The translations under genes and the position numbers were made by a program. The notes beneath the pieces are model-generated. The model was not told where the DNA came from. It saw nothing but the letters and a program-made list of their open reading frames with translations, and searched no databases. From Shigella phage SH6: a stretch of 50,552 nucleotides of DNA. Of this stretch, positions 584 to 45,930 are shown one piece after another. The stretch lies in sequence record KX828710, one strand, 5' to 3'. Position 1 is the first letter of the stretch. The number at the start of each line of letters is the position of its first letter.

Positions 584-823
584 ATGAGCAAGATTAAGCA
601 TGACGCCCTGAAAGGTATCTTGATGCGACTAAACCCAGGCGAAGCATTCCAGCTTAACCCCGAGACGTTTGGATTCAATGGTGATTATCGTACAACCTTC
701 GAATTTGTCCGGTATGTAAAGAAAGAGTTTGGATTCGAAGTTATTCACGCAGGTCTTATCAATGGCATTCAGACGTTCATCTTTAAGCCAAATGAGATTC
801 GCTGCTTCACGCTGATGAAATAG
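584..823 (+). CDS. hypothetical protein (79 aa)
   Basis: ORF track; starts 3 nt after previous stop; stop TAG is first triplet of cassette motif. Confidence 0.55.
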   Translation: MSKIKHDALKGILMRLNPGEAFQLNPETFGFNGDYRTTFEFVRYVKKEFGFEVIHAGLINGIQTFIFKPNEIRCFTLMK

Positions 824-863
824 CACTTTTTGTTAAAACCGGATCGGGATAACCTGGTATAGT
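821..863 (+). promoter_or_regulatory. intergenic cassette (palindrome + hairpin + TATAGT) upstream of 895..1089
   Basis: TAGCACTTTTTGTTAAAAC; TGgTATAGT 22 nt after TTGTTA inside hairpin GGGATAAC/GTTATCCC. Confidence 0.5.
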
Positions 864-894
864 TATCCCATCGACAACGAATGAGGAAACGAAG

Positions 895-3718: not shown

Positions 3719-3867
3719 TGGCTGCATGGGTTTTGATTATCTTGATGAGTACCGGGCCGGATCACGTATACATGGAAAGTCAGCAATCATGCAATAAGGC
3801 TAGGGAAGCAATCGCAGAGAACAAGCCGTTCGGATATGAAGTAAAAACGATGTGCGTTAAACGATAG
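3718..3867 (+). CDS. putative small exported/membrane protein (49 aa)
   Basis: Own translation MAAWVLIILMSTGPDHVYMESQQSCNKAREAIAENKPFGYEVKTMCVKR; TAATG overlap; ends exactly at cassette motif. Confidence 0.35.
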   Translation: MAAWVLIILMSTGPDHVYMESQQSCNKAREAIAENKPFGYEVKTMCVKR

Positions 3868-3907
3868 CACGAATTGCTAAACCTTCCGCAAGGCCATTTG
3901 ATATAGT
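3865..3907 (+). promoter_or_regulatory. intergenic cassette upstream of 3948..4154
   Basis: TAGCACGAATTGCTAAACC; TGaTATAGT at +22 in hairpin AAGGCCA/TGGCCTT. Confidence 0.5.
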
Positions 3908-3947
3908 GGCCTTATTGAAGCAAGGCAACCAATCAGAGGAATCAGCT

Positions 3948-5224: not shown

Positions 5225-5427
5225 CAGCAGAAGATGCAGCGCGTGACGCGGTGGAAGGAATGCGCCCAAACACCTCCAGAATCGCACACTACTACAAATC
5301 TGAGGTGTCGGCAGTGCAATTGGTCCACGAAATTTTAAGGCTCCCACAAGTCGATTCAGCGCGCGTGGTGACGTGCTTAAAAAATTATTTTTGCATCACT
5401 ATTAAAACGAATAGCACGAATTGCTAA
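5209..5427 (+). CDS. hypothetical protein (72 aa)
   Basis: ORF track; ends at cassette motif. Confidence 0.45.
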   Translation: MATIMTAEDAARDAVEGMRPNTSRIAHYYKSEVSAVQLVHEILRLPQVDSARVVTCLKNYFCITIKTNSTNC

Positions 5428-5454
5428 AACCTATCAAGGGGAACGCGCTATGAT
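5412..5454 (+). promoter_or_regulatory. intergenic cassette upstream of 5485..5931
   Basis: TAGCACGAATTGCTAAAAC; TATGAT at +22 in GGGGAA/TTCCCC hairpin. Confidence 0.5.
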
Positions 5455-5484
5455 TCCCCTACACTAAAAAACGAGGGAACACTC

Positions 5485-9039: not shown

Positions 9040-9076
9040 GCCTGCAATATGGTAAAATAGCACTAAATGTTAAACG
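9040..9076 (+). promoter_or_regulatory. variant cassette / putative promoter of packaging operon
   Basis: TGgTAAAAT extended -10-like element followed by TAGCACTAAATGTTAAAC and terS RBS; just after terminator. Confidence 0.4.
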
Positions 9077-14977: not shown

Positions 14978-15745
14978 ATGGCTTACGAAAATTTGTTCTT
15001 GCGCCCCGCGTGTCCGGGAAATCTTTCTGATACTTCAACCTACAATATTGATGGCGCTTGTGTGGCTCAAGGTGACATTGATTTCGGCGCGGCGGTTCAG
15101 GTTGTCGGCATCGTTGATGGTGTAAAAGTCGTCAAAGTACTTTCAGATGGCGGGACTCCTTACGGTATCGCTTTCCGTTCTCAATATGAACACCTGAGCG
15201 GTAAAATTCTCGACGGCGAAGTTTGCAACGTCGTTTCTCACGGTCGCATGTGGGCGCTTACTTCTCTTGATGAGGCTCCCGGCTTGTTCTCAAAGTTGCA
15301 GTTTGGATCTGGTGGAGTTGTTACTGGTGGGTCTGGTTCCGCAGGATGGACCTTTGCTGGCGGCTTTGTTAAGCATGAAGATGGCTACATTATTGAGGTT
15401 CAGGTGAAACAAAATGCTTTCATCGTTCCACCGCCGCCGCCCCCTGTCGTTCTTGTTGAATCCGCTACAATCACCACTGACAAGGAAAGTCCTCAGCCAA
15501 ACAATGTTACGATCCAGTGTGTAGCTAATGTTATTCCAGCTAATGCAACTGATAAGACTGGCAAGTGGTCAATCGACGCTACCAATATCGCCACTGTCGA
15601 TCCTGACTCAGGTCTTGTAACTCCTGCTGGTGGAGAATCGGTCGGTGATTTCAATATCACCTGGACGGCTAATGATGCCAGCAAGACGACGGCAACCATT
15701 GCTTATCGCGTAGAAGCAGTGCCAACGCCAGAGGTTGATGTATAA
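14978..15745 (+). CDS. putative head structural/decoration protein with C-terminal Ig-like domain
   Basis: Paralogue of 14439..14915 plus PPPPPP linker and Big_2-like C-terminal domain. Confidence 0.5.
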   Translation: MAYENLFLRPACPGNLSDTSTYNIDGACVAQGDIDFGAAVQVVGIVDGVKVVKVLSDGGTPYGIAFRSQYEHLSGKILDGEVCNVVSHGRMWALTSLDEAPGLFSKLQFGSGGVVTGGSGSAGWTFAGGFVKHEDGYIIEVQVKQNAFIVPPPPPPVVLVESATITTDKESPQPNNVTIQCVANVIPANATDKTGKWSIDATNIATVDPDSGLVTPAGGESVGDFNITWTANDASKTTATIAYRVEAVPTPEVDV

Positions 15746-15757
15746 CATAAAAACACT

Positions 15758-15785
15758 TTGACGCTTTAACAAAAAGTGCTATTAT
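15758..15785 (+). promoter_or_regulatory. candidate sigma70 promoter upstream of major capsid gene (overlaps reverse-oriented cassette half-motif)
   Basis: TTGACG-N16-TATTAT; spacer contains TTAACAAAAAGTGCTAT, the reverse complement of the cassette motif. Confidence 0.4.
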
Positions 15786-15788
15786 TGA

Positions 15789-15817
15789 AGCCGTGAACAT
15801 AATCACGGCTTTTTTTA
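15789..15817 (+). terminator. hairpin + T-run upstream of major capsid gene (terminator or attenuator)
   Basis: GCCGTGA..TCACGGC hairpin + TTTTTTT. Confidence 0.5.
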
Positions 15818-15837: not shown

Positions 15838-16797
15838 ATGACTACTAAAAAATTTGATGAAGCAGATAAAAGCAATGTTGAAATGTATCTGATCCAGGCT
15901 GGCGTAAAACAGGATGCAGCCGCAACGATGGGTATCTGGACCGCTCAGGAACTACACCGCATCAAAAGCCAGTCCTATGAAGAAGATTACCCAGTCGGGT
16001 CCGCTCTACGCGTATTCCCTGTTACAACCGATCTTTCTCCGACTGATAAGACGTTTGAATACATGACCTTTGACAAGGTTGGTACGGCTCAGATTATCGC
16101 AGACTACACCGACGATCTTCCGCTGGTTGACGCCCTGGGTACTTCTGAGTTTGGCAAGGTGTTCCGTCTTGGTAACGCGTATCTGATCTCAATCGACGAA
16201 ATCAAAGCAGGTCAGGCAACTGGTCGCCCACTGTCAACCCGTAAGGCAAGTGCGTGCCAGTTGGCGCATGATCAGCTTGTTAACCGCCTGGTGTTCAAAG
16301 GTTCCGCGCCGCACAAGATTGTATCCGTGTTCAATCATCCGAACATCACCAAAATTACCTCCGGTAAGTGGATGGATGGCGCAACTCAGAAACCGGAAAC
16401 GGCTGAAGCGGAATTGACTCAGGCAATCGAAACCATCGAGACGATTACTCGCGGCCAGCACCGAGCTACCAACATTCTGATCCCGCCGTCCATGCGTAAG
16501 GTGCTGGCGATTCGTATGCCTGAGACTACCATGTCTTATCTGGACTATTTCAAGTCTCAGAACTCCGGTATCGAAATCGACTCTATCGCAGAACTTGAAG
16601 ATATCGACGGCGCTGGAACTAAAGGTGTGCTGGTGTACGAAAAGAATCCGATGAACATGTCCATCGAGATCCCGGAAGCATTCAACATGCTGCCAGCGCA
16701 GCCGAAAGACTTGCACTTCAAAGTGCCTTGCACTTCCAAGTGCACTGGACTTACAATTTATCGCCCGATGACTATTGTCTTAATCACTGGCGTGTAA
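15838..16797 (+). CDS. major capsid protein
   Basis: ~320 aa, position in head module, strong ACGGAGAAG RBS; own terminator downstream. Confidence 0.7.
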   Translation: MTTKKFDEADKSNVEMYLIQAGVKQDAAATMGIWTAQELHRIKSQSYEEDYPVGSALRVFPVTTDLSPTDKTFEYMTFDKVGTAQIIADYTDDLPLVDALGTSEFGKVFRLGNAYLISIDEIKAGQATGRPLSTRKASACQLAHDQLVNRLVFKGSAPHKIVSVFNHPNITKITSGKWMDGATQKPETAEAELTQAIETIETITRGQHRATNILIPPSMRKVLAIRMPETTMSYLDYFKSQNSGIEIDSIAELEDIDGAGTKGVLVYEKNPMNMSIEIPEAFNMLPAQPKDLHFKVPCTSKCTGLTIYRPMTIVLITGV

Positions 16798-18786: not shown

Positions 18787-19455
18787 ATGCACTTACCAAA
18801 TGGCGCACAAATTTTCGTGGAAACCTCTCGCGGGGTAGAGGTTGAGGCAACCGCTATCACTAACGCAGAAAATCCTGTTGCTACAGTTGCATCTAAGGGA
18901 GACTTGGTAAAAGGCGATTACGTTATTGTAACTCAGTCAACCTGGGCCAAGATGGTCAGTCGAGTGCTAATTGTTACTGACGCTCAGGAAACAAGCATCA
19001 CTCTAGCTGGGATTGACACCTCTGATACTCTTGTTTTCCCGGCTGGCGGTACGATGAGCTTTGCAAAAATTACTGGCTGGACTGAGATTCCTTGCGTACA
19101 GGAGATTGGTCAGGACGGCGGCGAGCAGCAGTATTACACTTATCAGTGTTTGTCCGACGATAAAGAGCAGCAGATCCCAACGTTTAAATCTGCGGTATCG
19201 CTAACGTACACTTTCGCGCACGAATTTGATAACCCGATCTACCCGATTCTGCGTAAGCTGGATTCGTCTGGTCAGGTAACAGCGGTTCGAATGTACGTGC
19301 CGAAAGCGAGCGAAATGCGTATGTGGGCTGGCATCTTGTCGTTTAACGATATCCCATCCACACAGGTTAACGAAATGGAAACGGTGGAACTCGCCGTATC
19401 CCTGAAAGGTGACTTTACTTTCATTTCCTCCACTCTGGCATCGCCTGGCGCTTAA
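18787..19455 (+). CDS. major tail protein
   Basis: ~220 aa, AAGGAGAC RBS, position upstream of G/G-T chaperone and tape measure; terminator downstream. Confidence 0.65.
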   Translation: MHLPNGAQIFVETSRGVEVEATAITNAENPVATVASKGDLVKGDYVIVTQSTWAKMVSRVLIVTDAQETSITLAGIDTSDTLVFPAGGTMSFAKITGWTEIPCVQEIGQDGGEQQYYTYQCLSDDKEQQIPTFKSAVSLTYTFAHEFDNPIYPILRKLDSSGQVTAVRMYVPKASEMRMWAGILSFNDIPSTQVNEMETVELAVSLKGDFTFISSTLASPGA

Positions 19456-19465
19456 ATACAATCCA

Positions 19466-19495
19466 TAGGGGGCTTGCGCCCCCTTATTCATTTCT
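19466..19495 (+). terminator. terminator-like hairpin after major tail gene
   Basis: GGGGGC TTGC GCCCCC hairpin; weak T-run. Confidence 0.45.
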
Positions 19496-19568
19496 GTAAA
19501 ATCATCCTATCAACTTTATTCGATTAACTTTTAACAAAAAGTGCTATCAACCAATCAGGAGAAACATC

Positions 19569-19886
19569 ATGGCTAAATTCAATTTCGTGTTGGGCCAGCT
19601 TCCAGACTTCAAACTCCCGGTGACGTTCACCATGCCAAACGGCGAGGATGCGACTATTATTTTTACAGTACGCCACCTTTCCAGTAAAGAAGTGCAAGAT
19701 ATGTATGCGAAGCAGGGCGAAATGAATGATAGCGATTTCATCACTAAGATCGCATCAGGATGGAATCTGGAAGAAGAATTTAACGAAGAGAATGCGCGTA
19801 AACTGGTACAGTATTATCCTTCCGCAGCGTACAATCTGACGGCAACTTACATCAAGGCGCTCGCCGGACACCGCGCAAAAAACTAA
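19569..19886 (+). CDS. tail assembly chaperone (lambda gpG-like)
   Basis: ~105 aa acidic protein immediately upstream of tape measure; slippery heptamer at its 3' end. Confidence 0.7.
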   Translation: MAKFNFVLGQLPDFKLPVTFTMPNGEDATIIFTVRHLSSKEVQDMYAKQGEMNDSDFITKIASGWNLEEEFNEENARKLVQYYPSAAYNLTATYIKALAGHRAKN

Positions 19887-25666: not shown

Positions 25667-25689
25667 CCCGCCTTGCGCGGGTTTTTTTT
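25667..25689 (+). terminator. rho-independent terminator
   Basis: CCCGCCTTGCGCGGG + TTTTTTTT. Confidence 0.65.
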
Positions 25690-25693
25690 CGAC

Positions 25694-25704
25694 TGTATAA
25701 TGGG
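25694..25704 (+). promoter_or_regulatory. candidate -10 element (TGTATAATGG) downstream of terminator, upstream of J gene
   Basis: TATAAT hexamer; similar TGTAGAATGG after the identical terminator at 23511..23521. Confidence 0.3.
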
Positions 25705-25737
25705 TCCACCGATAAATAGCACAAAAAGGTAAACATC

Positions 25738-31994: not shown

Positions 31995-32068
31995 ACGGCA
32001 CAAATAGCTAAACAAATAATTAATGAGGTGTTATAATGCACCTCATACACCAATCAGGAGAAGCTAAG

Positions 32069-32716
32069 ATGCAATTATCACCAGAAACAAACGAAATCCT
32101 TCCGGCACTGTTCAATGCTCGAAATAAATTCGCAAAAGCAAAGAAAGACGCAAAAAACAATCACCTGAAAAATTCATACGCAACTCTTGATGCAATGATG
32201 GCAGCTGTTAGCCCGGCGCTAACCGACAACGATATTATGATCCTGCAATCAATGCTTGATACAAGCACGGAAACGACCTTCCATCTTGAGACAATGTTGA
32301 TTCATAAATCCGGGCAGTGGGCCAAATTCTTCATGATGATGCCGATTGCAAAACGCGATCCGCAAGGCGTAGGTTCCGCAATGACGTATGCTCGACGTTA
32401 CTCACTCGCTGCGGCGCTGGGGATTAGCCAGAGTGATGACGATGCTCAGCTTGCAGTGAAATCTGTCAAGGACTGGAAAAAAGAACTTGATGCGTGTGAA
32501 GATATCGAATCACTGAAAGAGGTATGGGCTAACGCTTACCGCCAGACGGATACGGCAAGCAAGTCAATAATTCAGGATCACTACAACGCACTTAAGGCTA
32601 AGTTTGAGATCGGTAAAGCTCGTGGTATTCGCCCGGCGCAACCGGAACAGAAAAAACAGGTTGAAGCAACGAGCGCGAAGCCTGTACAATCTCAATCAAT
32701 CACCAACTTCGAATAA
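32069..32716 (+). CDS. erf: Erf-family single-strand annealing protein
   Basis: GSAMTYARRYSLAAALGI core typical of Erf; ATG with AGGAGAAGC RBS. Confidence 0.7.
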   Translation: MQLSPETNEILPALFNARNKFAKAKKDAKNNHLKNSYATLDAMMAAVSPALTDNDIMILQSMLDTSTETTFHLETMLIHKSGQWAKFFMMMPIAKRDPQGVGSAMTYARRYSLAAALGISQSDDDAQLAVKSVKDWKKELDACEDIESLKEVWANAYRQTDTASKSIIQDHYNALKAKFEIGKARGIRPAQPEQKKQVEATSAKPVQSQSITNFE

Positions 32717-32762
32717 TCATCAGGGCGGCTTCGGTCGCCCATAAAATTTAGGAGAGAAAAAC

Positions 32763-33188
32763 ATGCATATTATCACTGGCGAGATCCGTAAAGAACCAAA
32801 GATTCTGGAACGTAACGGAGGAAATACTTATATCATCGAACTGGCAGAAAGCTACAAACCGCGTGATGGCGATCGAGAATACACCAACTACACATTCTTT
32901 TTTAGCGATGGTGGAAAGCCTGGTCTTGCTGACTGGTATCGTGAGGCTTTTCAAGTTGGGCGAGTCGTGTCGGTATCATGCGAAACATTGAAGATCTCAT
33001 CCCGCGAGCATAACGGAACGGTTTACAATTCATTGCAGGCAGCTGACTTCCCTAGACTGGTATTCAGTCAACGTGGTCAAAGTAACCAGCAACAACTAGC
33101 GCATCAGCAACAAAATCAACGATCTCAACATCAACCACAACCGCAACCAAATCCACAATCAACATTTGACGACGATATCCCATTCTAA
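32763..33188 (+). CDS. ssb: single-stranded DNA-binding protein
   Basis: OB-fold-sized N-terminus, Gln/Pro-rich linker and canonical acidic tip FDDDIPF. Confidence 0.75.
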   Translation: MHIITGEIRKEPKILERNGGNTYIIELAESYKPRDGDREYTNYTFFFSDGGKPGLADWYREAFQVGRVVSVSCETLKISSREHNGTVYNSLQAADFPRLVFSQRGQSNQQQLAHQQQNQRSQHQPQPQPNPQSTFDDDIPF

Positions 33189-33193
33189 TTTTC

Positions 33194-33224
33194 AAAAATA
33201 AGGAGCCTTGCGGCTCCTTTTTTA
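33194..33224. terminator. bidirectional terminator between ssb (+) and tail fibre (-)
   Basis: GGAGCC TTGC GGCTCC hairpin flanked by A-run and T-run. Confidence 0.65.
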
Positions 33225-34901
33225 TTTGCTAATCAATTCTGAAACGATAGTTTTAAGCTCCTCCACTTCCTTTTCAAGAGCTGATACCTTATTTGATTTG
33301 TAAACGAATGCGGCGCATAGGTCCATCAACAGTACGTTACTATCAAGAGAAAGTACATCGTCTGTATACCCGATTTCCTTTCGGTCGACTACAACTTCGT
33401 TCCCTTCCTCGTCCACCCCCTTGATGTCCTCATAAATGGCATGACCAGGCAGCAAGTGCACATATTCTGGGTCAATCATCGCAAGATCCTGTGCAATAAG
33501 GCCGTATCGCTGCACGTCAGAATCTTTATACTTAAACATTGCTGGAAGCCATTGACGAACGCGGTTGTAGCTTTCCTCGCCGTCAGTGTATTGGATTTCT
33601 TTCTTAAGGTCGCGGTCAGATAGCGGCGCTTTCTGGAACTCGTTAACCGAAGGGTTGCCGCTGTTACCGCTAATCAGCCTGCCGTCCGGCAGGAAGCGGA
33701 ATAGCGATTCAGTCATACCATTTTTCCACACGTGGATGCGGTAGTCTGACAAGTGGGTGTCCCCTGCACGAACAATTCCTGCGCGGGTCCAGTCTGCATA
33801 CCACCGATGCATTGTCATCCCCACCCAGTTATCTATCCCATACAGCGCGTTTGACAGACTGGTAGAGTTAGCCTCTAAGGCATTTAACACTACTGACTCG
33901 CCGCCATTCAGGTGCAGCGCACCCAACTTAACCAAACTATCATCACCAACTCCAAGATTAGCGCGCGCCGCCGCTGCCGTTGTTGCTGCCGTGCCGCCTT
34001 TTTCGATGGGTACGGTGTTCTCCGTAGATACAGATCCCAGATCAAGATTAGCACGTGCCTCCGATTTATTTTCCAGCCCTGCAAGATTACCATCCTTAGT
34101 TAAAAGATTATCGGCATTAATGCTATTTGCTGCGTCTTTCGCTTCCTGAGCACTTACCGCCGCCGCATCTTTTGAGCTAACCGCATCATTACGCGCCAAC
34201 TGAGCATCGTTTTTTGCAGAGGTTGCTGTTTGCGCTGCCGCTTGAGCGTCGTTAACGTAAACCGACAAATCTCCCTTTGCGTCATTAATTGCCTGAATAG
34301 CCGACGCCTCTTCCGTGTCGATGTGAGAGATGACAGATGATTCCTTAGAGCCGATATCAGTGATAGCCTGATCTTTTGCGGCATTAATGCCACCGATAGC
34401 CCCGTCAACAATATTCTGTGTCTGATTCTTGATTGAGTTAGTTTCATCGCGTGCAGCGTTGGCGGCGTCACGCGCTAATTCAGCCTGATTTTGCGCAGCT
34501 TGAGAATCAGATTTCGCCTGGTTCACATCAGCAACTATTTGCTCAAGTTTATTCATATCAAGCTGATTTATCAGGTCTATAGCTGCCGCGATCTCAGTCT
34601 CTTTGCTTTGATAGTATCGAAGCGTCTCAGCAACGTTTTGCGCAAGCCCGTTAACGGTTAGTGAATCGCTAAGCAAGATCACATACTTTCCGTCAGCTGC
34701 GGTCTGACCATCCGTAGAGATAGCCTTCATTTCCGTATCGCTCACAATATCGCTGATTACCGCCAGCTTAATCGGTTGCTCCAGGAATACGATAGTTGCA
34801 CCGACTCGAATCAAAGCAAGCTGATCTTTCCATTTTGTGTCTGTTCCGTGAACCGTGCCGTCTGCATCCATTGATGCTGTACCGCGTCTATATAAAGCCA
34901 T
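33222..34901 (-). CDS. tail fibre with C-terminal intramolecular chaperone (S74-like) domain
   Basis: Ala/Asp/Asn-rich shaft; C-terminal SDRDLKKEI..GLIAQD.. chaperone-type domain. Confidence 0.7.
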   Translation of the reverse strand: MALYRRGTASMDADGTVHGTDTKWKDQLALIRVGATIVFLEQPIKLAVISDIVSDTEMKAISTDGQTAADGKYVILLSDSLTVNGLAQNVAETLRYYQSKETEIAAAIDLINQLDMNKLEQIVADVNQAKSDSQAAQNQAELARDAANAARDETNSIKNQTQNIVDGAIGGINAAKDQAITDIGSKESSVISHIDTEEASAIQAINDAKGDLSVYVNDAQAAAQTATSAKNDAQLARNDAVSSKDAAAVSAQEAKDAANSINADNLLTKDGNLAGLENKSEARANLDLGSVSTENTVPIEKGGTAATTAAAARANLGVGDDSLVKLGALHLNGGESVVLNALEANSTSLSNALYGIDNWVGMTMHRWYADWTRAGIVRAGDTHLSDYRIHVWKNGMTESLFRFLPDGRLISGNSGNPSVNEFQKAPLSDRDLKKEIQYTDGEESYNRVRQWLPAMFKYKDSDVQRYGLIAQDLAMIDPEYVHLLPGHAIYEDIKGVDEEGNEVVVDRKEIGYTDDVLSLDSNVLLMDLCAAFVYKSNKVSALEKEVEELKTIVSELISK

Positions 34902-34914
34902 AGTATAAACTCCT

Positions 34915-34966
34915 TAAGTAAATAGCACTAATTGCTAAGCACTGATTTTATCATTGTGCTATGAGT
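34915..34966 (-). promoter_or_regulatory. variant cassette upstream of tail fibre gene
   Basis: Minus strand TAGCACAATGATAAAATC then palindrome GTGCTTAGCAATTAGTGCTA; TAAGGAG RBS. Confidence 0.4.
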
Positions 34967-34979
34967 CTTGCAATGGTCA

Positions 34980-35003
34980 ATAAAAAACCGCCCGAAGGCG
35001 GTT
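34980..35003 (-). terminator. rho-independent terminator after primase gene (minus strand)
   Basis: ACCGCC CGAA GGCGGT hairpin preceded on plus strand by A-run. Confidence 0.55.
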
Positions 35004-35937
35004 AGAGTAGGTCGCTTGCTGAGAATAATTTGGCTTGCATTCCTGAGCGGTATCCTCCGGGGTTCGGTATGATTATTTTTAATTGTCTGTCGTCTGCCAT
35101 GTACAAGGTATCCTTGTCTGAAGGTTCGCACGCTACCCTTACCTCTCGATCACCTTTATACCTGTATGCAACAATTTCGAGGTTTTCAGGGGTGAAGCAG
35201 GCCCATACCTCTTGCTTTGTGTGAAATGCAATATGCTGAGCATCAATCCAGTTAAGGCATAAGTAGATCGCCTTTTCAGTTTTACCAGTCACGGCAACCG
35301 AGCAACTCGTGTATTTCTTCGCATAAAATGACTCTCTTCCTTCTTCATCAATAATCAAAATATTGCAAAACTCATCATCAAGCCCATCCTCGTGCACAAG
35401 TTGACACGGTATAGTGTGAAATACACTCTCTCTTCCATCCTCGCTACGCTTTATACCGACATCGAATGATTCGGTGGGTAGTGACTCAAACACGCTCAAC
35501 GGCGTATTTATACGTTTCTCTGTACGCTCCATAACCTTCATCACCGCCTCATGTTCAGCCATCATGACATTGACACCTGACACCGGAGTCCGGCGCGCTT
35601 TCTTGTTTGCCTTGACGATGTATTCCTGCGGAACCTTTCCGAGAAATCTTCCCAAGATGTTTACGCATTCGCTGTACGGCATACCAGTCAACTTCATCAG
35701 CCAGCCAATACCAGAGTCGTTACCGCATGAGTTGCAGATCGCGCCGCCGTCGCCCGGAGTGTTCAGGTTATCAGTCCAGCGAAAACGGTCTTTACCTCCG
35801 CAGTTGGGGCAAGGTTGGTGCTTCTTATTAAAAACATCATTCGGCAATCCGCAGATTGATTGGAAAGCCTCGCGCCATAACCCCTTCATGTACGGTAAAA
35901 CGTCCTCTTTCTGAAACATCATAAATTCTTCGTTCAC
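35002..35937 (-). CDS. DNA primase (zinc-ribbon type, putative)
   Basis: CPNCGG...CNSCG zinc ribbon near N-terminus; replication module context; GTG start. Confidence 0.55.
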   Translation of the reverse strand: MNEEFMMFQKEDVLPYMKGLWREAFQSICGLPNDVFNKKHQPCPNCGGKDRFRWTDNLNTPGDGGAICNSCGNDSGIGWLMKLTGMPYSECVNILGRFLGKVPQEYIVKANKKARRTPVSGVNVMMAEHEAVMKVMERTEKRINTPLSVFESLPTESFDVGIKRSEDGRESVFHTIPCQLVHEDGLDDEFCNILIIDEEGRESFYAKKYTSCSVAVTGKTEKAIYLCLNWIDAQHIAFHTKQEVWACFTPENLEIVAYRYKGDREVRVACEPSDKDTLYMADDRQLKIIIPNPGGYRSGMQAKLFSASDLL

Positions 35938-35949
35938 TTCCAGATCTCC

Positions 35950-35990
35950 AAAATAAAAAACGCGTAGAAGGATGTTAACCCGCTACGCGT
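35950..35990 (-). terminator. terminator-like hairpin after Cro-like gene (minus strand)
   Basis: ACGCGTAG...CTACGCGT inverted repeat with A-run on plus strand. Confidence 0.45.
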
Positions 35991-35998
35991 CGTTTGTT

Positions 35999-36451
35999 TT
36001 AACTAAAAATGCTATTGGTCGTTCCGATATCTTCCTTCTTCACGACGCGCATAAATTTCTTGTTCTTGCATCGCTTCTCAAGGCACTTGCCGTTACCGTC
36101 AAACTTCAGGTCGAATCGCAACCATGCGGCGCGAAATCCTTTGCACCCCTGTCGGCGGTAAGCACGATGCGCAGCTTCAGCACCTTGCCATGAAATCATA
36201 TTGCGTTCTTTCCAGCCCTGCACCGTCTGATTGCTAACCTTCAGAGCCTTTGCGCAGGCCGCCGGGCCGCCGTAATATTCGATAAGGGCATCAAGTCGCG
36301 CTCGCAGTCCGGCGCGCGTTTCTTCTTTATGAATATAGAAGCCGCAGCGCTGTCGTGGCTTTTTGTCTTTACCGCGTCGTGTTCCGTTGTTACCATTGAT
36401 GTGACGTTTATCGATTTCACCAGTTGACTCCGCGATACGTTGAATACTCAT
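35999..36451 (-). CDS. Cro/YdaS-like HTH DNA-binding protein
   Basis: ACAKALKVSNQTVQGWKERNMISWQGAEAAHRA..LRFD matches YdaS/Cro-type HTH; divergent from helicase gene. Confidence 0.55.
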   Translation of the reverse strand: MSIQRIAESTGEIDKRHINGNNGTRRGKDKKPRQRCGFYIHKEETRAGLRARLDALIEYYGGPAACAKALKVSNQTVQGWKERNMISWQGAEAAHRAYRRQGCKGFRAAWLRFDLKFDGNGKCLEKRCKNKKFMRVVKKEDIGTTNSIFS

Positions 36452-36464
36452 CTTGATTCTCCTA

Positions 36465-36507
36465 TAGCACTTTTTGCTAAAAACGTTTACTGTATGCCGT
36501 GTATTAT
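36465..36507 (+). promoter_or_regulatory. intergenic cassette upstream of helicase gene
   Basis: TAGCACTTTTTGCTAAAAAC; TATTAT at +22 in hairpin CGTTTAC/GTAAACG. Confidence 0.5.
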
Positions 36508-36516
36508 AGCGTAAAC
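36484..36516. promoter_or_regulatory. divergent overlapping -10 elements in hairpin between Cro-like gene and helicase gene
   Basis: Inverted repeat CGTTTAC..GTAAACG with central TATTATA: TATTAT on plus, TATAAT on minus. Confidence 0.45.
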
Positions 36517-36544
36517 GTTACAACGATTCAAAGGATTAATAGAC

Positions 36545-38563
36545 GTGACAATGAACATTAAAAAGCAGATTGCATTACTTGGCGAGGACTACATAAAGCG
36601 AACTCAGGAGCGATTTACTGTTGGTGAGGTTATTCCTTATCCGTACCAGGTTGTTGCTTATGCTGAGATCGCGAAACGCCTATCAAATTACGAGCATCCA
36701 TTCTTTGTTAAAGCGTCGGTGTCTGCGGGTAAGACCATCATTTTTGCTATGGTTGCAAAGCAGTGTCAGAAAATGGGCTTAAAAATGCTTGTGCTGGCCC
36801 GTCAGGGTGAGATTGTCGATCAGGATAGCGAAGAGATCGACAACTTCGGCGTTACTAACTCAATATTCTCAGCCTCATTAGGTATTAAGTCCTGCTATTT
36901 TCCGATCGTGGTAGGCTCCGAGGGTACGGTTGCAAATGGCCTCGACAATGAGCTTGCTGATTTCGTCCCGCATGTAATTGGGATCGACGAATGTCACCAG
37001 GTGGATTGGGAAGACCTTGCGCAAGCCATTGAGGGCAAGGAAACAATGGAACAAATGAGGGGCGAGAAGGGAAAAATCATCATGGATGGAGATATTCCCA
37101 TGATTGGTAATGATGGAAAACCTTTGTTTGGGACTAAGCGCAGTCAGTACACGATCGTAATCATGGAAATGATGCGGCGCTGTAAAAAGGTTCACGGTCA
37201 CGATCTCAGAATATTTGGTATGACTGGATCTGAATTTCGTGGCGTAGTTCCTATTCTGGTAGAGAATCCGAAAGCATTGGGATTCTGGCGTGAGCGAGTA
37301 ACTGATATCGACACAAACTATCTGATTGAGTTCGGTTCTGTTGTGCCGACAATATTCGGTTCAACAGACGGAGTTCATTACGATCTGGATAAGTTCAAGG
37401 CGTCGAGCGAGGACGGAGTGCAGGACTTTACAGAGAAAGACATGAAGGCTATGGAAGATGAGATCCTTCATGATAAATCTCTTACTCAGCGAATCATGCA
37501 AATGGTTGCCAAAAAGGCTGAAGAGCGTAACGCGGTACTGATTACATGTGCTGGTGTGCGCCACTGCAAAGAGGCAGCGGCAGCACTTCCTCCGGGAAGC
37601 ACCTATGCAATTATTACTGGCGACACAGACAACAAAACGCGCAAGAAGATTCTTGACGATGTAAGGGCCGGAAAAATTAAATACACCTTTCAGGTAATGG
37701 CGCTCACTACTGGCGTTAACGTTCCAAATTGGGATTTCAGTGTCATACTCCGCAAGATAGGGTCGCTCACGCTGTTGATTCAACTCTTGGGTAGGGGTAT
37801 GCGTCTGCTTAAATCCTGGCAGGTTGCTGAGGGAATGGTTAAGCAGGACCATCTGGTATGGGATTTCGCAGGTACGATGGATGAGTTGGGTCAGCTTTAT
37901 TTCGATCCGATACTTGAGCAGGCGCAATTCCAAAAGCGTTTCGAAAACGGCAAAGATCCGAAAACATGTCCGAAATGCGGTTGCGTAAATAGCTTCTATG
38001 CTCGACGATGCGTTAATGTCATTGATGGTGAGCGTTGCGATCATTTCTGGACTTCTCAGATTTGTGAGGACCAGGTTGACGAGCGCACCGGAAAAATCCT
38101 TGTTAAAGGATGCGGCGCAGAGAATGACGTTGTGGCCCGAGTCTGTCGTTGCTGTGATGTTTCGCTTGTCGATCCTAACCTGAAGTTATCCGGTAAGGCG
38201 TACACTAAGAATGACTGGTATGAAGTAAAGAATTTTGAGGTTACGCTAACCAAAAACCAGAAAGGCATAATATACAAATACACTCTTATTAACGATGATG
38301 GTGATGAGTTCAAGGCGTATGAAAAATTCTTCCCCGAGTCTGACTCTAAGATTTGCGGTACGCTATGGAAAACTAAAGGTGTATTGCCACACGTATCAGA
38401 TCCTAAAATGCGCCGATACTTTATCGGAATGAAGAGCGCCATCAAGATTTTGCAATACTCACATCATATTGCTCACCCGGTGCGCGTAACTCATCGTCGC
38501 AACCAGAAGAAAGAAGATATTATCTCACGAAAAGACTTTGGTATGGAGGATATCCCGGAATGA
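36545..38563 (+). CDS. ATP-dependent DNA helicase (DEAD/DEAH-box superfamily 2) with C-terminal zinc ribbons
   Basis: Walker A SAGKTIIF, DECH box, CPKCGC..C..C and CGAEN..CRCC clusters. Confidence 0.75.
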   Translation: MTMNIKKQIALLGEDYIKRTQERFTVGEVIPYPYQVVAYAEIAKRLSNYEHPFFVKASVSAGKTIIFAMVAKQCQKMGLKMLVLARQGEIVDQDSEEIDNFGVTNSIFSASLGIKSCYFPIVVGSEGTVANGLDNELADFVPHVIGIDECHQVDWEDLAQAIEGKETMEQMRGEKGKIIMDGDIPMIGNDGKPLFGTKRSQYTIVIMEMMRRCKKVHGHDLRIFGMTGSEFRGVVPILVENPKALGFWRERVTDIDTNYLIEFGSVVPTIFGSTDGVHYDLDKFKASSEDGVQDFTEKDMKAMEDEILHDKSLTQRIMQMVAKKAEERNAVLITCAGVRHCKEAAAALPPGSTYAIITGDTDNKTRKKILDDVRAGKIKYTFQVMALTTGVNVPNWDFSVILRKIGSLTLLIQLLGRGMRLLKSWQVAEGMVKQDHLVWDFAGTMDELGQLYFDPILEQAQFQKRFENGKDPKTCPKCGCVNSFYARRCVNVIDGERCDHFWTSQICEDQVDERTGKILVKGCGAENDVVARVCRCCDVSLVDPNLKLSGKAYTKNDWYEVKNFEVTLTKNQKGIIYKYTLINDDGDEFKAYEKFFPESDSKICGTLWKTKGVLPHVSDPKMRRYFIGMKSAIKILQYSHHIAHPVRVTHRRNQKKEDIISRKDFGMEDIPE

Positions 38564-38976
38564 TTACAGACAAAGGTGATTATTTAGAATTTTACGAGAG
38601 AGATCCGAGCGACACTCGAAAGGAGGACGCTCATCAGGTGGATTGTGTATCTTGGCTGAAATACAATTTTCCTCACCTTCTATTTTGGCACACCGTCAAT
38701 GAGGGTGAAAAAACAATCACATCGGCGCTCAGGGATGAGCAGTCCGGATTACTTAAAGGTGTGTCAGACTTCGTTATCCTGATTGGTATTAACTCACGCT
38801 ACCCGTTCGCAGCTATCGAACTCAAGCGGGTTAATAAGTCAGGCAAAGGAAAGGCGTCACCAGTCAGTGATAAGCAGAAGGAGTTTCTCCGAAAGGTCCG
38901 AGAACGTGGCGGCTTCCCTGCTGTCGCATACGGATTCGAACAGTTCAAAGTCGCAATTTACGAATTGATGAAATAG
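38560..38976 (+). CDS. VRR-NUC domain nuclease
   Basis: VSDFVILI..AAIELKR..S..Q pattern of VRR-NUC (PD-(D/E)xK). Confidence 0.65.
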   Translation: MITDKGDYLEFYERDPSDTRKEDAHQVDCVSWLKYNFPHLLFWHTVNEGEKTITSALRDEQSGLLKGVSDFVILIGINSRYPFAAIELKRVNKSGKGKASPVSDKQKEFLRKVRERGGFPAVAYGFEQFKVAIYELMK

Positions 38977-39016
38977 CACTTTTTGTTAAAACTGCCGGAA
39001 TGGAATCTGGCATTAT
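38974..39016 (+). promoter_or_regulatory. intergenic cassette upstream of dam
   Basis: TAGCACTTTTTGTTAAAAC; TGgCATTAT at +22; near-identical inverted copy at 48640..48711. Confidence 0.5.
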
Positions 39017-39043
39017 TACCTCACCGAAACGAGAGGACTAAAG

Positions 39044-39757
39044 ATGAAAGACTTTAATGATATTGAAACCATCGACTTTGCAGAGACTGGGTGCTCATTC
39101 ACTCGCGAAGCAATAGCATCAGGCGGTTATTATCAGGCGTTAAAAACGCCAACATGCAAAGAGATTTCAGGTCGTCGATATAAGGGTACAAACACACCTG
39201 ACGCAGTTCGTGATTTATGGTCAACTCCACGAGAGGTTATTGCATACCTTGAGGGTCGGTACGGAAAATACGATCTCGACGCTGCGGCAAGCGAAGAAAA
39301 TAAAGTTTGCGATAAGTTCTACTCCCAAGAAACAAACTGCTTAAAACGTTGGTGGGGTAAGAATAAGCACGTTTGGTTAAACCCTCCTTATAGCCGACCT
39401 GATATATTCGTCAAGAAGGCTATTGAGCAAATGGAGCACAACAACCAGATCGATATACTGTTACCAGCCGATAACTCTACGGCGTGGTTTACTGAGGCGC
39501 GGCAGAACGCAGCTGAAATCATCTGGATTGAAGCGGACTTGACTGAGGATGTTGACGGAAATGAATACGCACGATCCGGTCGTCTGGCCTTCATATCCGG
39601 TGAAACTGGAAAGGCCGTAGATGGCAATAACAAAGGTTCGGTAATTTTTATTATGCGCGAACTTAAAGAAGGTGAGGTGCAACAGACTCACTACATCCCA
39701 ATCACAAGCATTTGCCCTTCGGTGAAAAACAAACGAGCAAAGGTGAGAAAAGTATGA
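39044..39757 (+). CDS. dam: DNA N6-adenine methyltransferase (phage Dam type)
   Basis: DLDAAAS and WLNPPYS motifs. Confidence 0.8.
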   Translation: MKDFNDIETIDFAETGCSFTREAIASGGYYQALKTPTCKEISGRRYKGTNTPDAVRDLWSTPREVIAYLEGRYGKYDLDAAASEENKVCDKFYSQETNCLKRWWGKNKHVWLNPPYSRPDIFVKKAIEQMEHNNQIDILLPADNSTAWFTEARQNAAEIIWIEADLTEDVDGNEYARSGRLAFISGETGKAVDGNNKGSVIFIMRELKEGEVQQTHYIPITSICPSVKNKRAKVRKV

Positions 39758-40005
39758 TGAGCGAAAAAATTGTTCCTGTTAAATTAACTGAGCAAGGTTT
39801 ATGGCTTCTTTATCGCGCTACGTGCTGCGAGATTATGGAGCGAAACGGATTGACTCAGGATGTTATTGGTTGCGATCTGTGGGAGTTCACTAGCTCTCTT
39901 GATATGTCTTTCGAAGAGATAAAGAATGAATACATTGAGAATTGGCCCTCAATCATCCAAAAAGACGTAGAAGAACTTTCTTCTGAGATAATCACACAGC
40001 ACTAA
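39754..40005 (+). CDS. hypothetical protein (83 aa)
   Basis: ATG at residue 15 of track ORF 39712..40005; ATGA overlap with dam. Confidence 0.5.
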   Translation: MMSEKIVPVKLTEQGLWLLYRATCCEIMERNGLTQDVIGCDLWEFTSSLDMSFEEIKNEYIENWPSIIQKDVEELSSEIITQH

Positions 40006-40039
40006 TTGCTAAAACTACCCGGCGAAAGTCGGGTATAGT
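39996..40039 (+). promoter_or_regulatory. intergenic cassette upstream of 40072..40281
   Basis: AGCACTAATTGCTAAAAC; TATAGT at +22 in hairpin. Confidence 0.5.
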
Positions 40040-40071
40040 TATTTCATAGAAACAAAATGAGGAATCAGAAG

Positions 40072-40281
40072 ATGGCACGCATTAACGCAAACTTTTTCAA
40101 TATCGCTCAACAGTCCGCAAAAATGGCTGTTCATATCACTGACAAGAAAGGCGGCAACTTTGATTGGGATATTGCTATGAACTTCCTTAAAATGGCTTAT
40201 TACCTCTGCTCAGTCAAAGATGTTGAATGTTTTATTGAAAGCGTGGAGAAATTAACTAATGCTGATAAAAAAACAAGGTAA
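40072..40281 (+). CDS. hypothetical protein (69 aa)
   Basis: Internal ATG of track ORF 40057..40281 with GAGGAATCAGAAG RBS; cassette upstream. Confidence 0.5.
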   Translation: MARINANFFNIAQQSAKMAVHITDKKGGNFDWDIAMNFLKMAYYLCSVKDVECFIESVEKLTNADKKTR

Positions 40282-40531
40282 GCGCGAGGTTTGGGAGCAC
40301 GCAAAGGAATGCGGCATCTCAGACGATATAGCATTAATTGCTAAATACTTTGATATAAAGGATGTTAGCATTATCTCAAACGGCAAGATTTCATTTATGG
40401 AAGATATGCCGAGAAAAATGCACAGAGTTCCAGCAACTCCATCACTTGAGTTTTATCGTGAAGAAGGAAAGAGAATTGAACGAGAACGAAAGGCAACAAA
40501 AAACAGTAAGTCTTCCTGGCTTAAACATTAA
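40259..40531 (+). CDS. hypothetical protein (90 aa)
   Basis: ORF track; overlaps next frame. Confidence 0.45.
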   Translation: MLIKKQGKREVWEHAKECGISDDIALIAKYFDIKDVSIISNGKISFMEDMPRKMHRVPATPSLEFYREEGKRIERERKATKNSKSSWLKH

Positions 40532-40763
40532 CTCAGATAACTACCAGACCATATGGATCGGAAAGAAGCAGGTTAAGAAAATCCCTTTCTCTGATTGGTT
40601 GCCTCCTGACTTCGTTAACGTGCTTTGCACTATTGGGATCGAGCAAGAGTTGCATATAGGTTATTACTCACCAGGTAGAAACAGTATGATGCTTGAGGTT
40701 GATGGAAAACTGGTTGAGTTTAAATCTTCAGATCTAGGATTCTGGTTAAAGGCTGTGGCATGA
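40362..40763 (+). CDS. hypothetical reading frame (protein-like only from ~40540); possible continuation of 40259..40531 by +1 frameshift or sequencing indel
   Basis: Track ORF; no canonical start codon after 40531 in this frame. Confidence 0.3.
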   Translation: MLALSQTARFHLWKICREKCTEFQQLHHLSFIVKKERELNENERQQKTVSLPGLNINSDNYQTIWIGKKQVKKIPFSDWLPPDFVNVLCTIGIEQELHIGYYSPGRNSMMLEVDGKLVEFKSSDLGFWLKAVA

Positions 40764-40841
40764 TACTTTATTTTGCTGTAGTATTAACACCGCTAATTTC
40801 ATTTTCAGTAATGTATTTCATTATCATGTAAGGATTAAAAT

Positions 40842-41993
40842 ATGTCACAAGCTAAAATCACTACCGAGCAACTTATCGAAGAACGTATGAACGGACTTAC
40901 ACTTCGCGAGATCGCGGAAAAGTACGGTATGCACATTCGCACTGTCGAGGCGCGTCACGCAAAACTTGCAAAAGAAGGCCACTTCCACGGTAACGAGCAT
41001 GTTGCTAAAAACGTGCCGGAAGGCTTCATGGTAAAAGGCACTTCTACGATGATTCGCGGCGATGGGACTGAGGTAGTTCGCTGGGTTAAGACCGATCAGG
41101 ACCGTGAGAAGATTGCGGCAATGATGGAAGCTGCGCGTATTGCATTCTGTGAAGACCTGCCGCGAGCAAAGCCAACCGAGCTACTAACCTCGCAAGGGCT
41201 TACGACAGCGATGGGTAAGCTGGCACTCTATCCGGTATTCGATCTCCATATTGGCGCGCTTGCTCATAAGCATGAATGCGGTGAGAACTATTCCACCGAC
41301 GTAGCGGAAAAAGTGCTTAGCGACTTCTTTAATTACGCGATCGATATTGCGCCGAACGCAGAGAAGGCTGTTCTGTTAATCGGCGGCGACTTCCTTCACT
41401 CTGACGGCCTTGACGCTGTTACCCCGGCAAGTGGTCACGTTCTAGATCAGGATTCACGATATGCGAAATTGGTGCATGTAGCGATTCGTTCGGTGCGTCG
41501 CGCCATCGACAAAATGCTTATGAAACACAAAGAAGTCGAGGTCCAAGTTATCGAAGGGAACCACGATCAGTCTGGGATGATTTGGCTGCGAGCTGCAATG
41601 TCGGCATATTATGAAGACGAGCCGCGAGTATTCGTTGACGTTAGTCCTATGATTCTGCATAAGACTCGTTGGGGAAATACCTTGTTGGGATACACTCACG
41701 GGCACACTATGAAAAAGGCAGACACGCGACTTGCAGCAATGGCGGCAGATTTCCGATCAGACTTCGGCGAGAGCAAGTATGTGTATACTCATAGTGGTCA
41801 CTGGCATCACCAGACAATCACTGAGCACTCGCTTGGTATTGATGAAGTACACGGTCAGTTAGGCGCGAAAGACGCATACGCAGCACGCGGAGGGTGGCGC
41901 TCATATCGCCAGGCGGCTGTAATTGTTTACGATAAGCAGTTTGGGGAAATCGGTCGATTCATCTACCGTCCAGAAATGACAGGATCGCACTAA
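40842..41993 (+). CDS. calcineurin-like metallophosphoesterase (Mre11/SbcD-like motifs) with N-terminal HTH
   Basis: Motifs DLHIG, GGDFLH, GNHD, plus His-rich C-terminus; N-terminal LTLREIAEKYGMHIRTVEARHAKL HTH. Confidence 0.6.
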   Translation: MSQAKITTEQLIEERMNGLTLREIAEKYGMHIRTVEARHAKLAKEGHFHGNEHVAKNVPEGFMVKGTSTMIRGDGTEVVRWVKTDQDREKIAAMMEAARIAFCEDLPRAKPTELLTSQGLTTAMGKLALYPVFDLHIGALAHKHECGENYSTDVAEKVLSDFFNYAIDIAPNAEKAVLLIGGDFLHSDGLDAVTPASGHVLDQDSRYAKLVHVAIRSVRRAIDKMLMKHKEVEVQVIEGNHDQSGMIWLRAAMSAYYEDEPRVFVDVSPMILHKTRWGNTLLGYTHGHTMKKADTRLAAMAADFRSDFGESKYVYTHSGHWHHQTITEHSLGIDEVHGQLGAKDAYAARGGWRSYRQAAVIVYDKQFGEIGRFIYRPEMTGSH

Positions 41994-42027
41994 TTGATAA
42001 AAATGCCCGAAGGGATTCGGGTATAGT
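41985..42027 (+). promoter_or_regulatory. intergenic cassette (variant) upstream of 42057..42233
   Basis: GCACTAATTGATAAAAA variant; TATAGT at +22 in CCCGAA/TTCGGG hairpin. Confidence 0.45.
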
Positions 42028-42056
42028 AACCACATCGAAAACAAAGAGGCTATATC

Positions 42057-42233
42057 ATGAAGCTAGTTAAGTGCATCCGAAATGACTCCAAAACACTTCC
42101 ATTCCGTGTAAATCAGATCTATAGTGTTGGTTATGATTTCGGTGGGGGATTATTTGAGATTTACGACGGGAGAGGTTCAGCAATCCAGACTCCTCTGAAC
42201 GGTAGCTATCTGGAATTTATTGCGATAGATTAA
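42057..42233 (+). CDS. small protein (58 aa), member of KC..F.V..IY..DG domain family
   Basis: Own translation MKLVKCIRNDSKTLPFRVNQIYSVGYDFGGGLFEIYDGRGS...; cassette and AAGAGG RBS upstream. Confidence 0.45.
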   Translation: MKLVKCIRNDSKTLPFRVNQIYSVGYDFGGGLFEIYDGRGSAIQTPLNGSYLEFIAID

Positions 42234-42255
42234 CAATATCATTCATCACCTTACA

Positions 42256-42286
42256 GGCTGGCATGGTTTACATGCTGGCCTTTTTG
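42256..42286 (+). terminator. terminator-like hairpin before lysis cassette
   Basis: Imperfect GGCTGGCATG..CATGCTGGCC hairpin + TTTTT. Confidence 0.4.
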
Positions 42287-42351
42287 CGTTGTATCAAGTA
42301 AATTTGAAGGTTAAAATCGACTCACTTGTTCAAAAAATATATGGTGAGATT

Positions 42352-42567
42352 ATGAAAGAGTTTTTAACGGCTGCCACGTCAAGCACTGGCGGTGCTTCGT
42401 TGGTAGGGGCGGCGACAGGGCAACTTTATATTGCTGGCGCTACATTCATTTGCTTTCTGCTTTTTGGTGCCTGGGGAGCGTACTGGAAGTATCGTGATAG
42501 TAAGGCAATTCAGGAAGCGTTAAACGATGGCGATCTAAATAAGGCGCTTAAGATCAGGGGGAGATAA
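42352..42567 (+). CDS. holin
   Basis: 71 aa with hydrophobic TM segment and charged C-terminus; directly upstream of endolysin; ATG at residue 22 of track ORF. Confidence 0.65.
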
Positions 42568-43055
42568 TGAGTTTAAAAAATAACGTTATAGGCGCATCGA
42601 TCGGGGCCGCTTTGACGTTGACACCTACCCTACTGGAACGAATCGAAGGTATAGAATACGAGGTTTATTACGATATCGCCGGAGTCCCTACCGTATGCAG
42701 CGGAATAACCGGGCCGGACGTAATACCCGGTAAGAAATACACTAAGCGAGAATGCGATGCATTGCTGATAAAACATATCGGCGTCGCTCAGCGATACGTC
42801 GACAAGAAGGTAAAGGTTGACATCCCGGTAACTATGCGAGCATCACTGTATAGCTTCACTTTCAACGTCGGGACTGGCGCGTTCGGATCTTCTACAATGC
42901 TTAAGCTAATAAATCAGAGTAAGCACAAGGAAGCGTGCAATCAGTTATGGCGATGGGTGTACTACTACAACCCAAAAACCAAAAAGCGCGAAGTGTCTAG
43001 AGGACTCAAGAACCGACGCGCTGAAGAATACGCGTATTGCGTTAAGGAATTATGA
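42567..43055 (+). CDS. endolysin (phage lysozyme, GH24-like)
   Basis: N-terminal [22 protein letters not shown] lysozyme signature; 162 aa. Confidence 0.8.
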
Positions 43056-43456: not shown

Positions 43457-43470
43457 GCCTCCTTTCTTTT
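43439..43470. terminator. bidirectional terminator between spanin (+) and leftward gene block (-)
   Basis: AGGAGGC GTAA GCCTCCT hairpin flanked by AAAAAA and TTTCTTTT. Confidence 0.65.
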
Positions 43471-44281: not shown

Positions 44282-44285
44282 ATCA

Positions 44286-45927: not shown

Positions 45928-45930
45928 TGG

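Follow-up and report, generated by a model that had tools for sequence, protein, structure and literature searches.

The question raised by this locus is why a repeat that belongs to the early promoters of a T1-like phage also lies, in reverse orientation, within the plus-strand late module, once ahead of the major capsid gene (copy 1) and once ahead of the tail assembly chaperone gene (copy 2). The DNA analysed here (the window) is a 50,552-nt stretch of Shigella phage SH6 (sequence record KX828710). It represents a T1-like phage (Tunavirus), whose region from 14.5 to 20.5 kb shares 96.7% identity with phage ADB-2 and 96.3% with T1; compared with the ADB-2 record, the start is shifted by approximately 4,270 nt. 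Plus-strand genes span positions 1 to approximately 29 kb, beginning with small early genes and continuing with terS, terL, portal, head and tail genes, while the remainder comprises a mixed replication block and, after it, an early block on the minus strand. All transcription start sites given below are predictions from -10 positions; a literature search for a transcriptome of any Drexlerviridae phage found none.

The genes that follow the reversed copies are:

15838–16797, plus strand, major capsid protein gene
19569–19886, plus strand, tail assembly chaperone gene
33222–34901, minus strand, tail-fibre gene (PHROG tail fibre match, E 5e-90)

The 17-mer TTAACAAAAAGTGCTAT was found at 15766–15782 and 19531–19547 without a single mismatch, as reported in the first-pass annotation. 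Both copies are reversed with respect to the plus-strand late genes, since the motif of the early region reads ATAGCACTTTTTGTTAA on the coding strand. The window harbors eight exact copies of the 17-mer and 18 copies with up to three mismatches (0.19 expected), a number reached by none of 100 shuffled sequences. A third reversed copy (34925–34939), located before the minus-strand tail-fibre gene, was absent from the earlier list. Position and orientation of copies 1 and 2 are kept in Drexlerviridae relatives down to 57% capsid identity, and this positional conservation is far above chance.

The repeat and the marbox consensus

The repeat of the window is the same element as the 21-nt direct repeat of phage TLS, for which 18 intergenic copies with the consensus aaATAGCACnnnTTGnTAAAA were described in a re-annotation published in 2024 (PMC11447400). 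The TLS repeats run along the direction of transcription approximately 76 nt before start codons, and similar repeats were noted in T1 and Rtp by the same authors, who suggested stoperators, enhancers or UP elements and ranked the function of the repeat among the open questions of the field (PMC11447400). A homologue of copy 1 is listed in their Table S1 (DR7, negative strand, 5 nt before terminator T35); the paper comments neither on the reversal of DR7 nor on a link to marboxes (PMC11447400). None of the repeats is annotated in the curated T1 record (AY216660).

The 15-mer GCACTTTTTGTTAAA, which consists of the motif and its next base, matches the published E. coli marbox consensus GCAHWWWWTGYYAAA, the binding site of MarA, SoxS and Rob, at 15 of 15 positions. 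Scanning the window with this consensus yielded 13 sites without a mismatch (0.03 expected) and 27 with no more than one (1.3 expected). Among 26 copies, G1, C2, A3, G10, A13 and A14 are invariant and variation is limited to positions at which the consensus is degenerate; at position 11, 13 of them have T and 12 have C. Position 5 is G in seven copies, against W in the consensus, and the mar marbox likewise carries G there. The phage boxes share an A-Y-N prefix with the micF and mar boxes. Both reversed copies fit the asymmetric consensus together with this prefix and belong to the marboxes in this sense, with MarA, SoxS and Rob as candidate binding proteins. Judged from its sequence, the repeat suggests a marbox-type site, asymmetric and 15–20 bp long, for a two-HTH monomer of the MarA/SoxS/Rob/RamA type.

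The spacing around the boxes was compared with that of known Mar/Sox/Rob promoters. In the early blocks, the order of elements is ATAGCACTTTTTGTTAA, 18 nt, TGn, a -10 hexamer, a conserved leader, the RBS and the start codon. The 22 sense copies consist of a box, 20 ± 1 nt and TAnnnT, with the start codon 52–72 nt downstream and the -10 often extended (TG). An example is given here:

823–868, plus strand, sense cassette with box, 17 nt, TGG, TATAGT and conserved 5' UTR

Class II Mar/Sox/Rob promoters have no -35 element, and their forward boxes cluster near -41. Measured on E. coli K-12, the micF box GCACTGAATGTCAAA is followed by 20 nt and TAGAAT, and its centre lies at -41 from the annotated RNA start. 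The class II position of the box was found in the 22 sense cassettes and, on the minus strand, for copy 2; copy 1 does not show it. The 17–20 nt between box and -10 either have a variable sequence or fold into a GC-rich hairpin, and nothing resembling TTGACA is located at 17 nt. TTGTTA was rejected as a -35 element, the spacer to the -10 being 22 nt in that case. A sigma-54 promoter was considered as well, owing to the resemblance of TAGCAC-N3-TTGC to TGGCAC-N5-TTGC; the phage motif lacks GG, its spacing is too short by 2 nt, and an extended -10 of the sigma-70 type follows at a fixed distance from the box.

Several further features of the sense cassettes were observed. A GC-rich inverted repeat lies between box and -10 or straddles the -10, and differs by copy with compensating changes (GGGATAAC/GTTATCCC, GGGGTA/TACCCC, GGCCA/TGGCC, CCCGA/TCGGG). 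Such hairpins are located at 823–870, 1559–1610, 2580–2630, 3867–3915, 5414–5460, 41987–42030 and 48277–48235 (minus strand), among others, and are followed by the conserved leader CATCGAAACGA. The arrangement looks like a terminator-like hairpin fused into a promoter.

Reversed copies and other boxes at promoters of packaging and virion genes

The region of copy 1, upstream of the capsid gene, contains the following elements:

15739–15747, minus strand, pseudo -10 TGTTATACA at the cassette distance from copy 1, overlapping the Ig-domain stop codon
15749–15785, plus strand, capsid sigma-70 promoter (A5 tract 15749–15753, -35 TTGACG 15758–15763, 16-nt spacer, TG 15777–15778, -10 TATTAT 15780–15785)
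15765–15779, minus strand, copy 1 box (15-mer, 15/15 with the marbox consensus)
15787–15816, plus strand, intrinsic terminator hairpin with a 10-bp stem and T-run

Two readings had been offered for this site, a plus-strand TTGACG-N16-TATTAT and an antisense promoter directed into the Ig-domain head protein gene. The former was borne out: it matches 10 of 12 promoter positions, TG is present, and the T1 record AY216660 already carries a predicted promoter here. TTG is retained in the -35 of all 40 distinct relatives, and in the -10 T1 is found in 39, A2 in 36 and T6 in 37 of them; the A-tract, the 16-nt spacer and TGC are conserved on the plus strand as well. The last three bases of the -10, which lie outside the repeat, vary (TAT, ATT, CAT, GAT, TCT). 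The 15-mer of copy 1 is perfect in 34 of the 40 relatives and spans -27 to -13 of the capsid promoter, with its GCAC end over the TG of the extended -10.

A working cassette promoter on the minus strand, antisense to the Ig-domain decoration gene, is improbable in our estimate. From copy 1, the minus strand reads 18 nt, TGT and TATACA, so that the distance to TGTTATACA equals the spacing of the cassettes as had been stated; the distance of 22 nt given for it needs correction, as the hexamer starts 21 nt after the 17-mer. Most relatives also keep TGnTA on this strand. This conservation is due to two features that the element overlaps, namely the stop codon and, in the plus-strand promoter, the A-tract; the final T of the hexamer is present in only two of the 40 relatives. 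In the clade with 57% identity, the antisense element is absent, though the box and the plus-strand promoter are kept there. Since the final T is so rarely found, copy 1 is read here as the spacer and TG of the capsid promoter rather than as an antisense promoter. The site had also been called unusual for a structural operon; it is the box overlying the promoter that is unusual, and not in itself the presence of an internal promoter ahead of a major capsid gene.

The capsid promoter is fused to a terminator. The predicted start (15792/15793) lies inside the 5' arm of the hairpin, for which an energy of -15.0 kcal/mol was calculated in read-through RNA versus -5.3 or -3.3 kcal/mol for RNA starting at +7 or +8. 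Nine lineages with different stems gave -8.5 to -15.7 kcal/mol for read-through and -0.5 to -5.3 kcal/mol for promoter-initiated RNA. In most lineages the hairpin begins 1–4 nt past the -10, and the predicted start is a G after a pyrimidine at +7 or +8. As the hairpin is weak in promoter-initiated RNA, it would stop transcripts arriving from upstream and let those of the capsid gene pass. In the 57%-identity clade, the terminator is located upstream of the capsid promoter, which confirms the promoter reading of copy 1. Class I activation of plus-strand genes by the reversed boxes was rejected, as the required starts, 62–72 nt downstream, would fall at or inside coding sequences.

Copy 2 differs from copy 1 in its surroundings. 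The elements upstream of the tail chaperone gene are:

19467–19494, plus strand, terminator after the major tail (tube) gene
19474–19502, plus strand, promoter of the tail chaperone/tape-measure operon (-35 TTGCGC 19474–19479, 17-nt spacer, -10 TAAAAT 19497–19502)
19504–19512, minus strand, antisense extended -10 (TGA TAGGAT), 20 nt from the 15-mer, predicted start approximately 19497
19530–19544, minus strand, copy 2 box (15-mer, 15/15 with the consensus), conserved in 27–29 distinct relatives

The first-pass annotation had rightly placed this copy directly before the RBS of the chaperone gene and had overlooked the remainder of the cassette geometry, namely the 18 nt, TGA and TAGGAT (19509–19504) on the minus strand. 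Among the relatives, TG of this antisense -10 is present in 25 of 28, T1 in 28, A2 in 27 and T6 in 27, with a variable middle; the 18-nt spacer is free in sequence and fixed in length. Copy 2 is a conserved, predicted antisense extended -10 promoter of the class II type. Beyond its -10, an invariant block (GATTYTACAG, or CTGTARAATC on the plus strand) is found. The opposing chaperone promoter, with a predicted start at approximately 19509, has the form TTGCGC-N17-TA[AGC]AAT; positions 1, 2, 4, 5 and 6 of its -10 are invariant in all 29 relatives, and the -35 is located at exactly 17 nt in 28 of them. The tube-gene terminator contains this -35 in its loop and 3' arm. The two -10 hexamers (19497–19502, plus; 19509–19504, minus) are 1 nt apart, and two polymerases therefore cannot bind together. 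Phage TLS, which unlike the window lacks copy 2, keeps the plus-strand promoter (TTGCGT-N17-TAATAT) without the approximately 45-nt block of antisense -10 and box, so this block is an add-on between the late -10 and the RBS. The antisense promoter might have served a minus-strand ORF (19201–19491), which was dismissed because relatives do not conserve its start codon. An origin of replication with a T4-like R-loop primer was dismissed too: GC skew tracks transcription, with no inflection near 19.5 kb.

Boxes were found on further late promoters:

9050–9074, plus strand, terS promoter TGgTAAAAT (hexamer 9053–9058) with a perfect forward box at 9060–9074, approximately -5 to +10
34925–34953, minus strand, tail-fibre promoter TGaTAAAAT (34953–34945) with the reversed box at 34925–34939, approximately -1 to +14

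TerS is the first late gene, and its box covers the predicted start; in Klebsiella Weberviruses, TGnTATACT is found at the terS position and the box is absent. The overlap with core promoter or start is thus common to copy 1, terS and tail fibre, and all four boxes outside the sense class II geometry sit on promoters of packaging or virion genes.

Additional observations concern other loci. A degenerate forward box (13/15) at 25719–25733, the homologue of TLS repeat DR8, lies over the RBS region of the gene for the 1149-aa central tail fibre, downstream of a TTGCGC-N17-TATAAT promoter and upstream of the gene start. Terminator-promoter fusions, with TTGCGC in the loop and 3' arm and 17 nt before TAnAAT, are present at 19474–19502 and 25669–25702, preceding the tail chaperone and central tail-fibre genes. 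In several relatives (at approximately positions 300–700 of the loci compared), a forward box only 7 nt upstream of TGTATAAT, followed at once by a terminator (GGCTGGA..CCAGCC), overlaps a further late promoter; this box, absent in the window, is probably situated between the terL and portal genes, as judged by where it stands with respect to the capsid gene.

A proposed switch and its candidate readers

From sequence identity, geometry and conservation of the boxes, we infer a switch in which one box-binding factor would activate the early promoters and block those of the structural genes, the factor most likely being host MarA, SoxS or Rob; we regard this reading as evenly balanced between right and wrong. 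The approximately 22 sense boxes would be the activator sites in class II promoters that serve the early genes and the replication genes. Boxes in the structural module would be placed where a bound protein interferes with the promoter of the gene itself instead of activating it. Occupancy of copy 1 should exclude sigma-70, because the GCAC end directly covers the TG of that promoter, and bound copy 1 is therefore judged likelier to repress the capsid promoter, in the manner of pbpG, than to activate it. Copy 2 would recruit RNA polymerase to the antisense extended -10 promoter; as opposing polymerases are mutually exclusive there, the activator would act as a repressor of the late promoter, and transcription from the antisense promoter would yield a short RNA that extends into the terminator of the tube gene. 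The terS and tail-fibre boxes over the predicted starts may do the same blocking job. Virion genes would then stay off until occupancy falls, either because replicated phage DNA titrates the factor or because the labile host proteins decay.

A stricter version, in which T1-family virulent phages time their genes through host MarA, SoxS or Rob and the switch operates without any phage regulator, by falling box occupancy, is possible but doubtful. In this version, some 22 early promoters would be of the class II marbox type, and every major promoter of the structural genes (terS, capsid, tail chaperone, tail fibre) would have its box in a blocking or opposing position. Here, approximately 27 high-affinity sites per genome would replicate, or the labile host activators would decay; the phage would sense host stress and soak up the activators of efflux-pump expression. 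In unstressed cells, MarA and SoxS are scarce, while Rob is abundant and largely sequestered. T1 grows well in ordinary culture despite the scarcity of these activators, so activation may be dispensable or the reader may be another one.

An AraC-like ORF was not found in the window by hmmsearch or phmmer at maximum sensitivity (best E 0.45), and Pfam gave no AraC-like match for ten early proteins; a reader of the MarA type would therefore be that of the host. About nine cassettes of the T1 type were found in Xanthomonas phage DIBBI (boxes at DIBBI 32055–46625), a T1-related myovirus with capsid, helicase, primase and Dam in common with T1. The gp47 of DIBBI (16383–16793) is a 136-aa protein of the HTH_18/AraC family, similar to MarA in size, a type of gene encoded in only 30 of 50,697 phage records. 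The best PDB match of gp47 is MarA (1BL0, E 4e-7), followed by RamA, SoxS and Rob. One DIBBI cassette begins at the stop codon of the gp47 gene. The helix-3 contact residues of MarA are not kept in gp47 according to the HMMER alignment, and close relatives of DIBBI infect Pantoea; for both reasons, the support from DIBBI is circumstantial.

The most serious competitor keeps the same logic and assigns the reading of the box to a Cro/P22-C2-like regulator of the phage itself (35999–36451, minus strand; T1 gp56), which would bind as a dimer to the pseudo-dyad TAGCA-N7-TGCTA centred near -41, much as lambda cI does at OR2/PRM. We consider it unlikely, and give the host-factor reading about twice its weight. 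Homologues of gp56 occur in 823 phage records, compared to 907 for the capsid protein, and are nearly universal in the family; the protein matches a PHROG transcriptional regulator (E 1e-76) and, weakly, P22_Cro. The box at 36467 is 12 nt from the RBS of the gp56 gene in a face-to-face promoter pair, the TAGCA/TGCTA dyad is perfect in 10 of 26 copies, and a factor made by the phage would not depend on scarce host activators. Presence or absence does not separate the two candidates, gp56 being near-universal, encoded in Pantoea phage AAS23 and weakly detectable in DIBBI. The half-sites, however, differ in the bases that are invariant at their outer and inner positions (ATAGCAC versus TTARCAA), and in the right half TGTTA and TGCTA are equally frequent, so that an asymmetric reader fits better than a homodimer; the orientation of the box towards the -10 is also fixed in all 22 sense copies. 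Moreover, the predicted recognition helix of gp56 varies by clade (NQTVQGW, LKTVWGW, IQVVQQW, PQAVEEW, KQTINAW, FSGVRSW), whereas T1, TLS, DIBBI and the Klebsiella and Pantoea phages all have one and the same box, and the perfect match to an independent host consensus as well as the micF spacing would be coincidences. If gp56 does read the box, the architecture still stands, with activation at -41, occlusion of the capsid promoter and face-to-face promoters at the tail operon.

Two other readings come from suggestions of the TLS authors (PMC11447400). Boxes acting as orientation-dependent roadblocks to elongating polymerase ("stoperators") would suit their intergenic position and the location of the copy 2, tail-fibre and gp56 boxes just upstream of the RBS and downstream of the predicted start. 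The constant 20-nt spacing in 22 copies and the antisense TGnTAnnnT at copy 2 would be left unexplained by roadblocks, and most boxes lie upstream of the predicted start of their gene. Stoperators of the mycobacteriophage L5 type are asymmetric repressor sites within transcribed DNA that block elongation and keep one orientation towards transcription; compared with them, an orientation bias is present here and the reversed copies break the rule of a single orientation. We regard the roadblock as quite improbable. Still less credence is given to a box that contacts only the alpha subunit in the manner of an UP element, with the reversed copies as functionless relics of cassette shuffling. The A/T-rich centre of the box at -40 to -50 agrees with such a contact, but an UP element is an A/T-rich stretch at -40 to -60 that lacks a conserved G/C core, and in the box the invariant positions are GCAC and TG and not the A/T run. 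As for relics, the reversed copies are kept down to 57% capsid identity, copy 1 being perfect in most relatives, while the flanks vary.

A second face-to-face arrangement was observed at 36451–36545, where a putatively box-dependent helicase promoter (plus strand, TATTAT) opposes the near-consensus gp56 promoter (minus strand, TTGAAT-N17-TATAAT) in a common -10 region. The design is the same as that of copy 2.

The TLS repeat and the predicted capsid promoter of T1 were already known, and literature searches for T1-like phages in connection with marboxes, MarA, SoxS or Rob, or for the motif string, returned only the TLS paper; the marbox reading of the repeat is without a precedent found in the literature. 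It makes the function of a repeat in T1, one of the seven classical T phages, experimentally approachable. If the host-factor switch proposed above is true, a lytic phage would use the antibiotic-stress regulon of its host to switch early genes on and to gate virion genes, which would bear on phage therapy combined with mar/sox-inducing antibiotics and on the titration of efflux and porin regulators by phages. Compact, portable promoter, terminator and switch modules would be supplied as well.

Comparison with known systems

The archetypal class II promoter dependent on Mar/Sox/Rob is micF. Like the sense cassettes and copy 2, it combines a forward GCAC-N7-AAA box with 20 nt to the -10 and has no -35. 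The micF box matches the consensus at 14 of 15 positions compared to 15 of 15 in the phage, and the phage cassettes often add TG. Unlike micF, they contain a GC-rich spacer hairpin and occur approximately 22 times in a 50-kb virulent phage; for copy 2, there is no gene on the same strand that could be expressed.

For copy 1, the closest counterparts are E. coli pbpG, where a marbox over the promoter spacer mediates repression by MarA, SoxS and Rob, and rob, which is reported to be repressed by MarA through steric hindrance. As in these cases, the box of copy 1 lies inside the core promoter between -35 and -10. It differs in that GCAC also covers the TG of the extended -10, in that the promoter is fused to a terminator, and in that repression is a prediction. 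At the sigma-28 promoter flgBP2 of E. coli, MarA bound to the spacer activates by distorting base pairing. The box is likewise in reverse orientation there, at -30 to -16, whereas that of copy 1 is 3 bp closer to the -10 and belongs to a strong sigma-70 extended -10 promoter. Because the spacer marbox of flgBP2 activates, the sign of regulation is not readable from the position of a box alone, and we infer it for copy 1.

Competing promoter pairs are represented by lambda PR/PRM with cI, pR/pL of coliphage 186 and pIN/pOUT of IS10. Copy 2 and the helicase/gp56 region are proposed to resemble such pairs, in that a bound protein would favour one direction and exclude the other. Copy 2 differs from them in that the activated promoter lacks a coding target and the regulator may be a stress activator of the host. 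The PeSL elements of T4 (promoter-early stem-loop) are short repeated units of promoter and hairpin between small early genes, an arrangement shared by the cassettes described here; they are unrelated in sequence and, unlike the cassettes, carry no marbox-like activator site.
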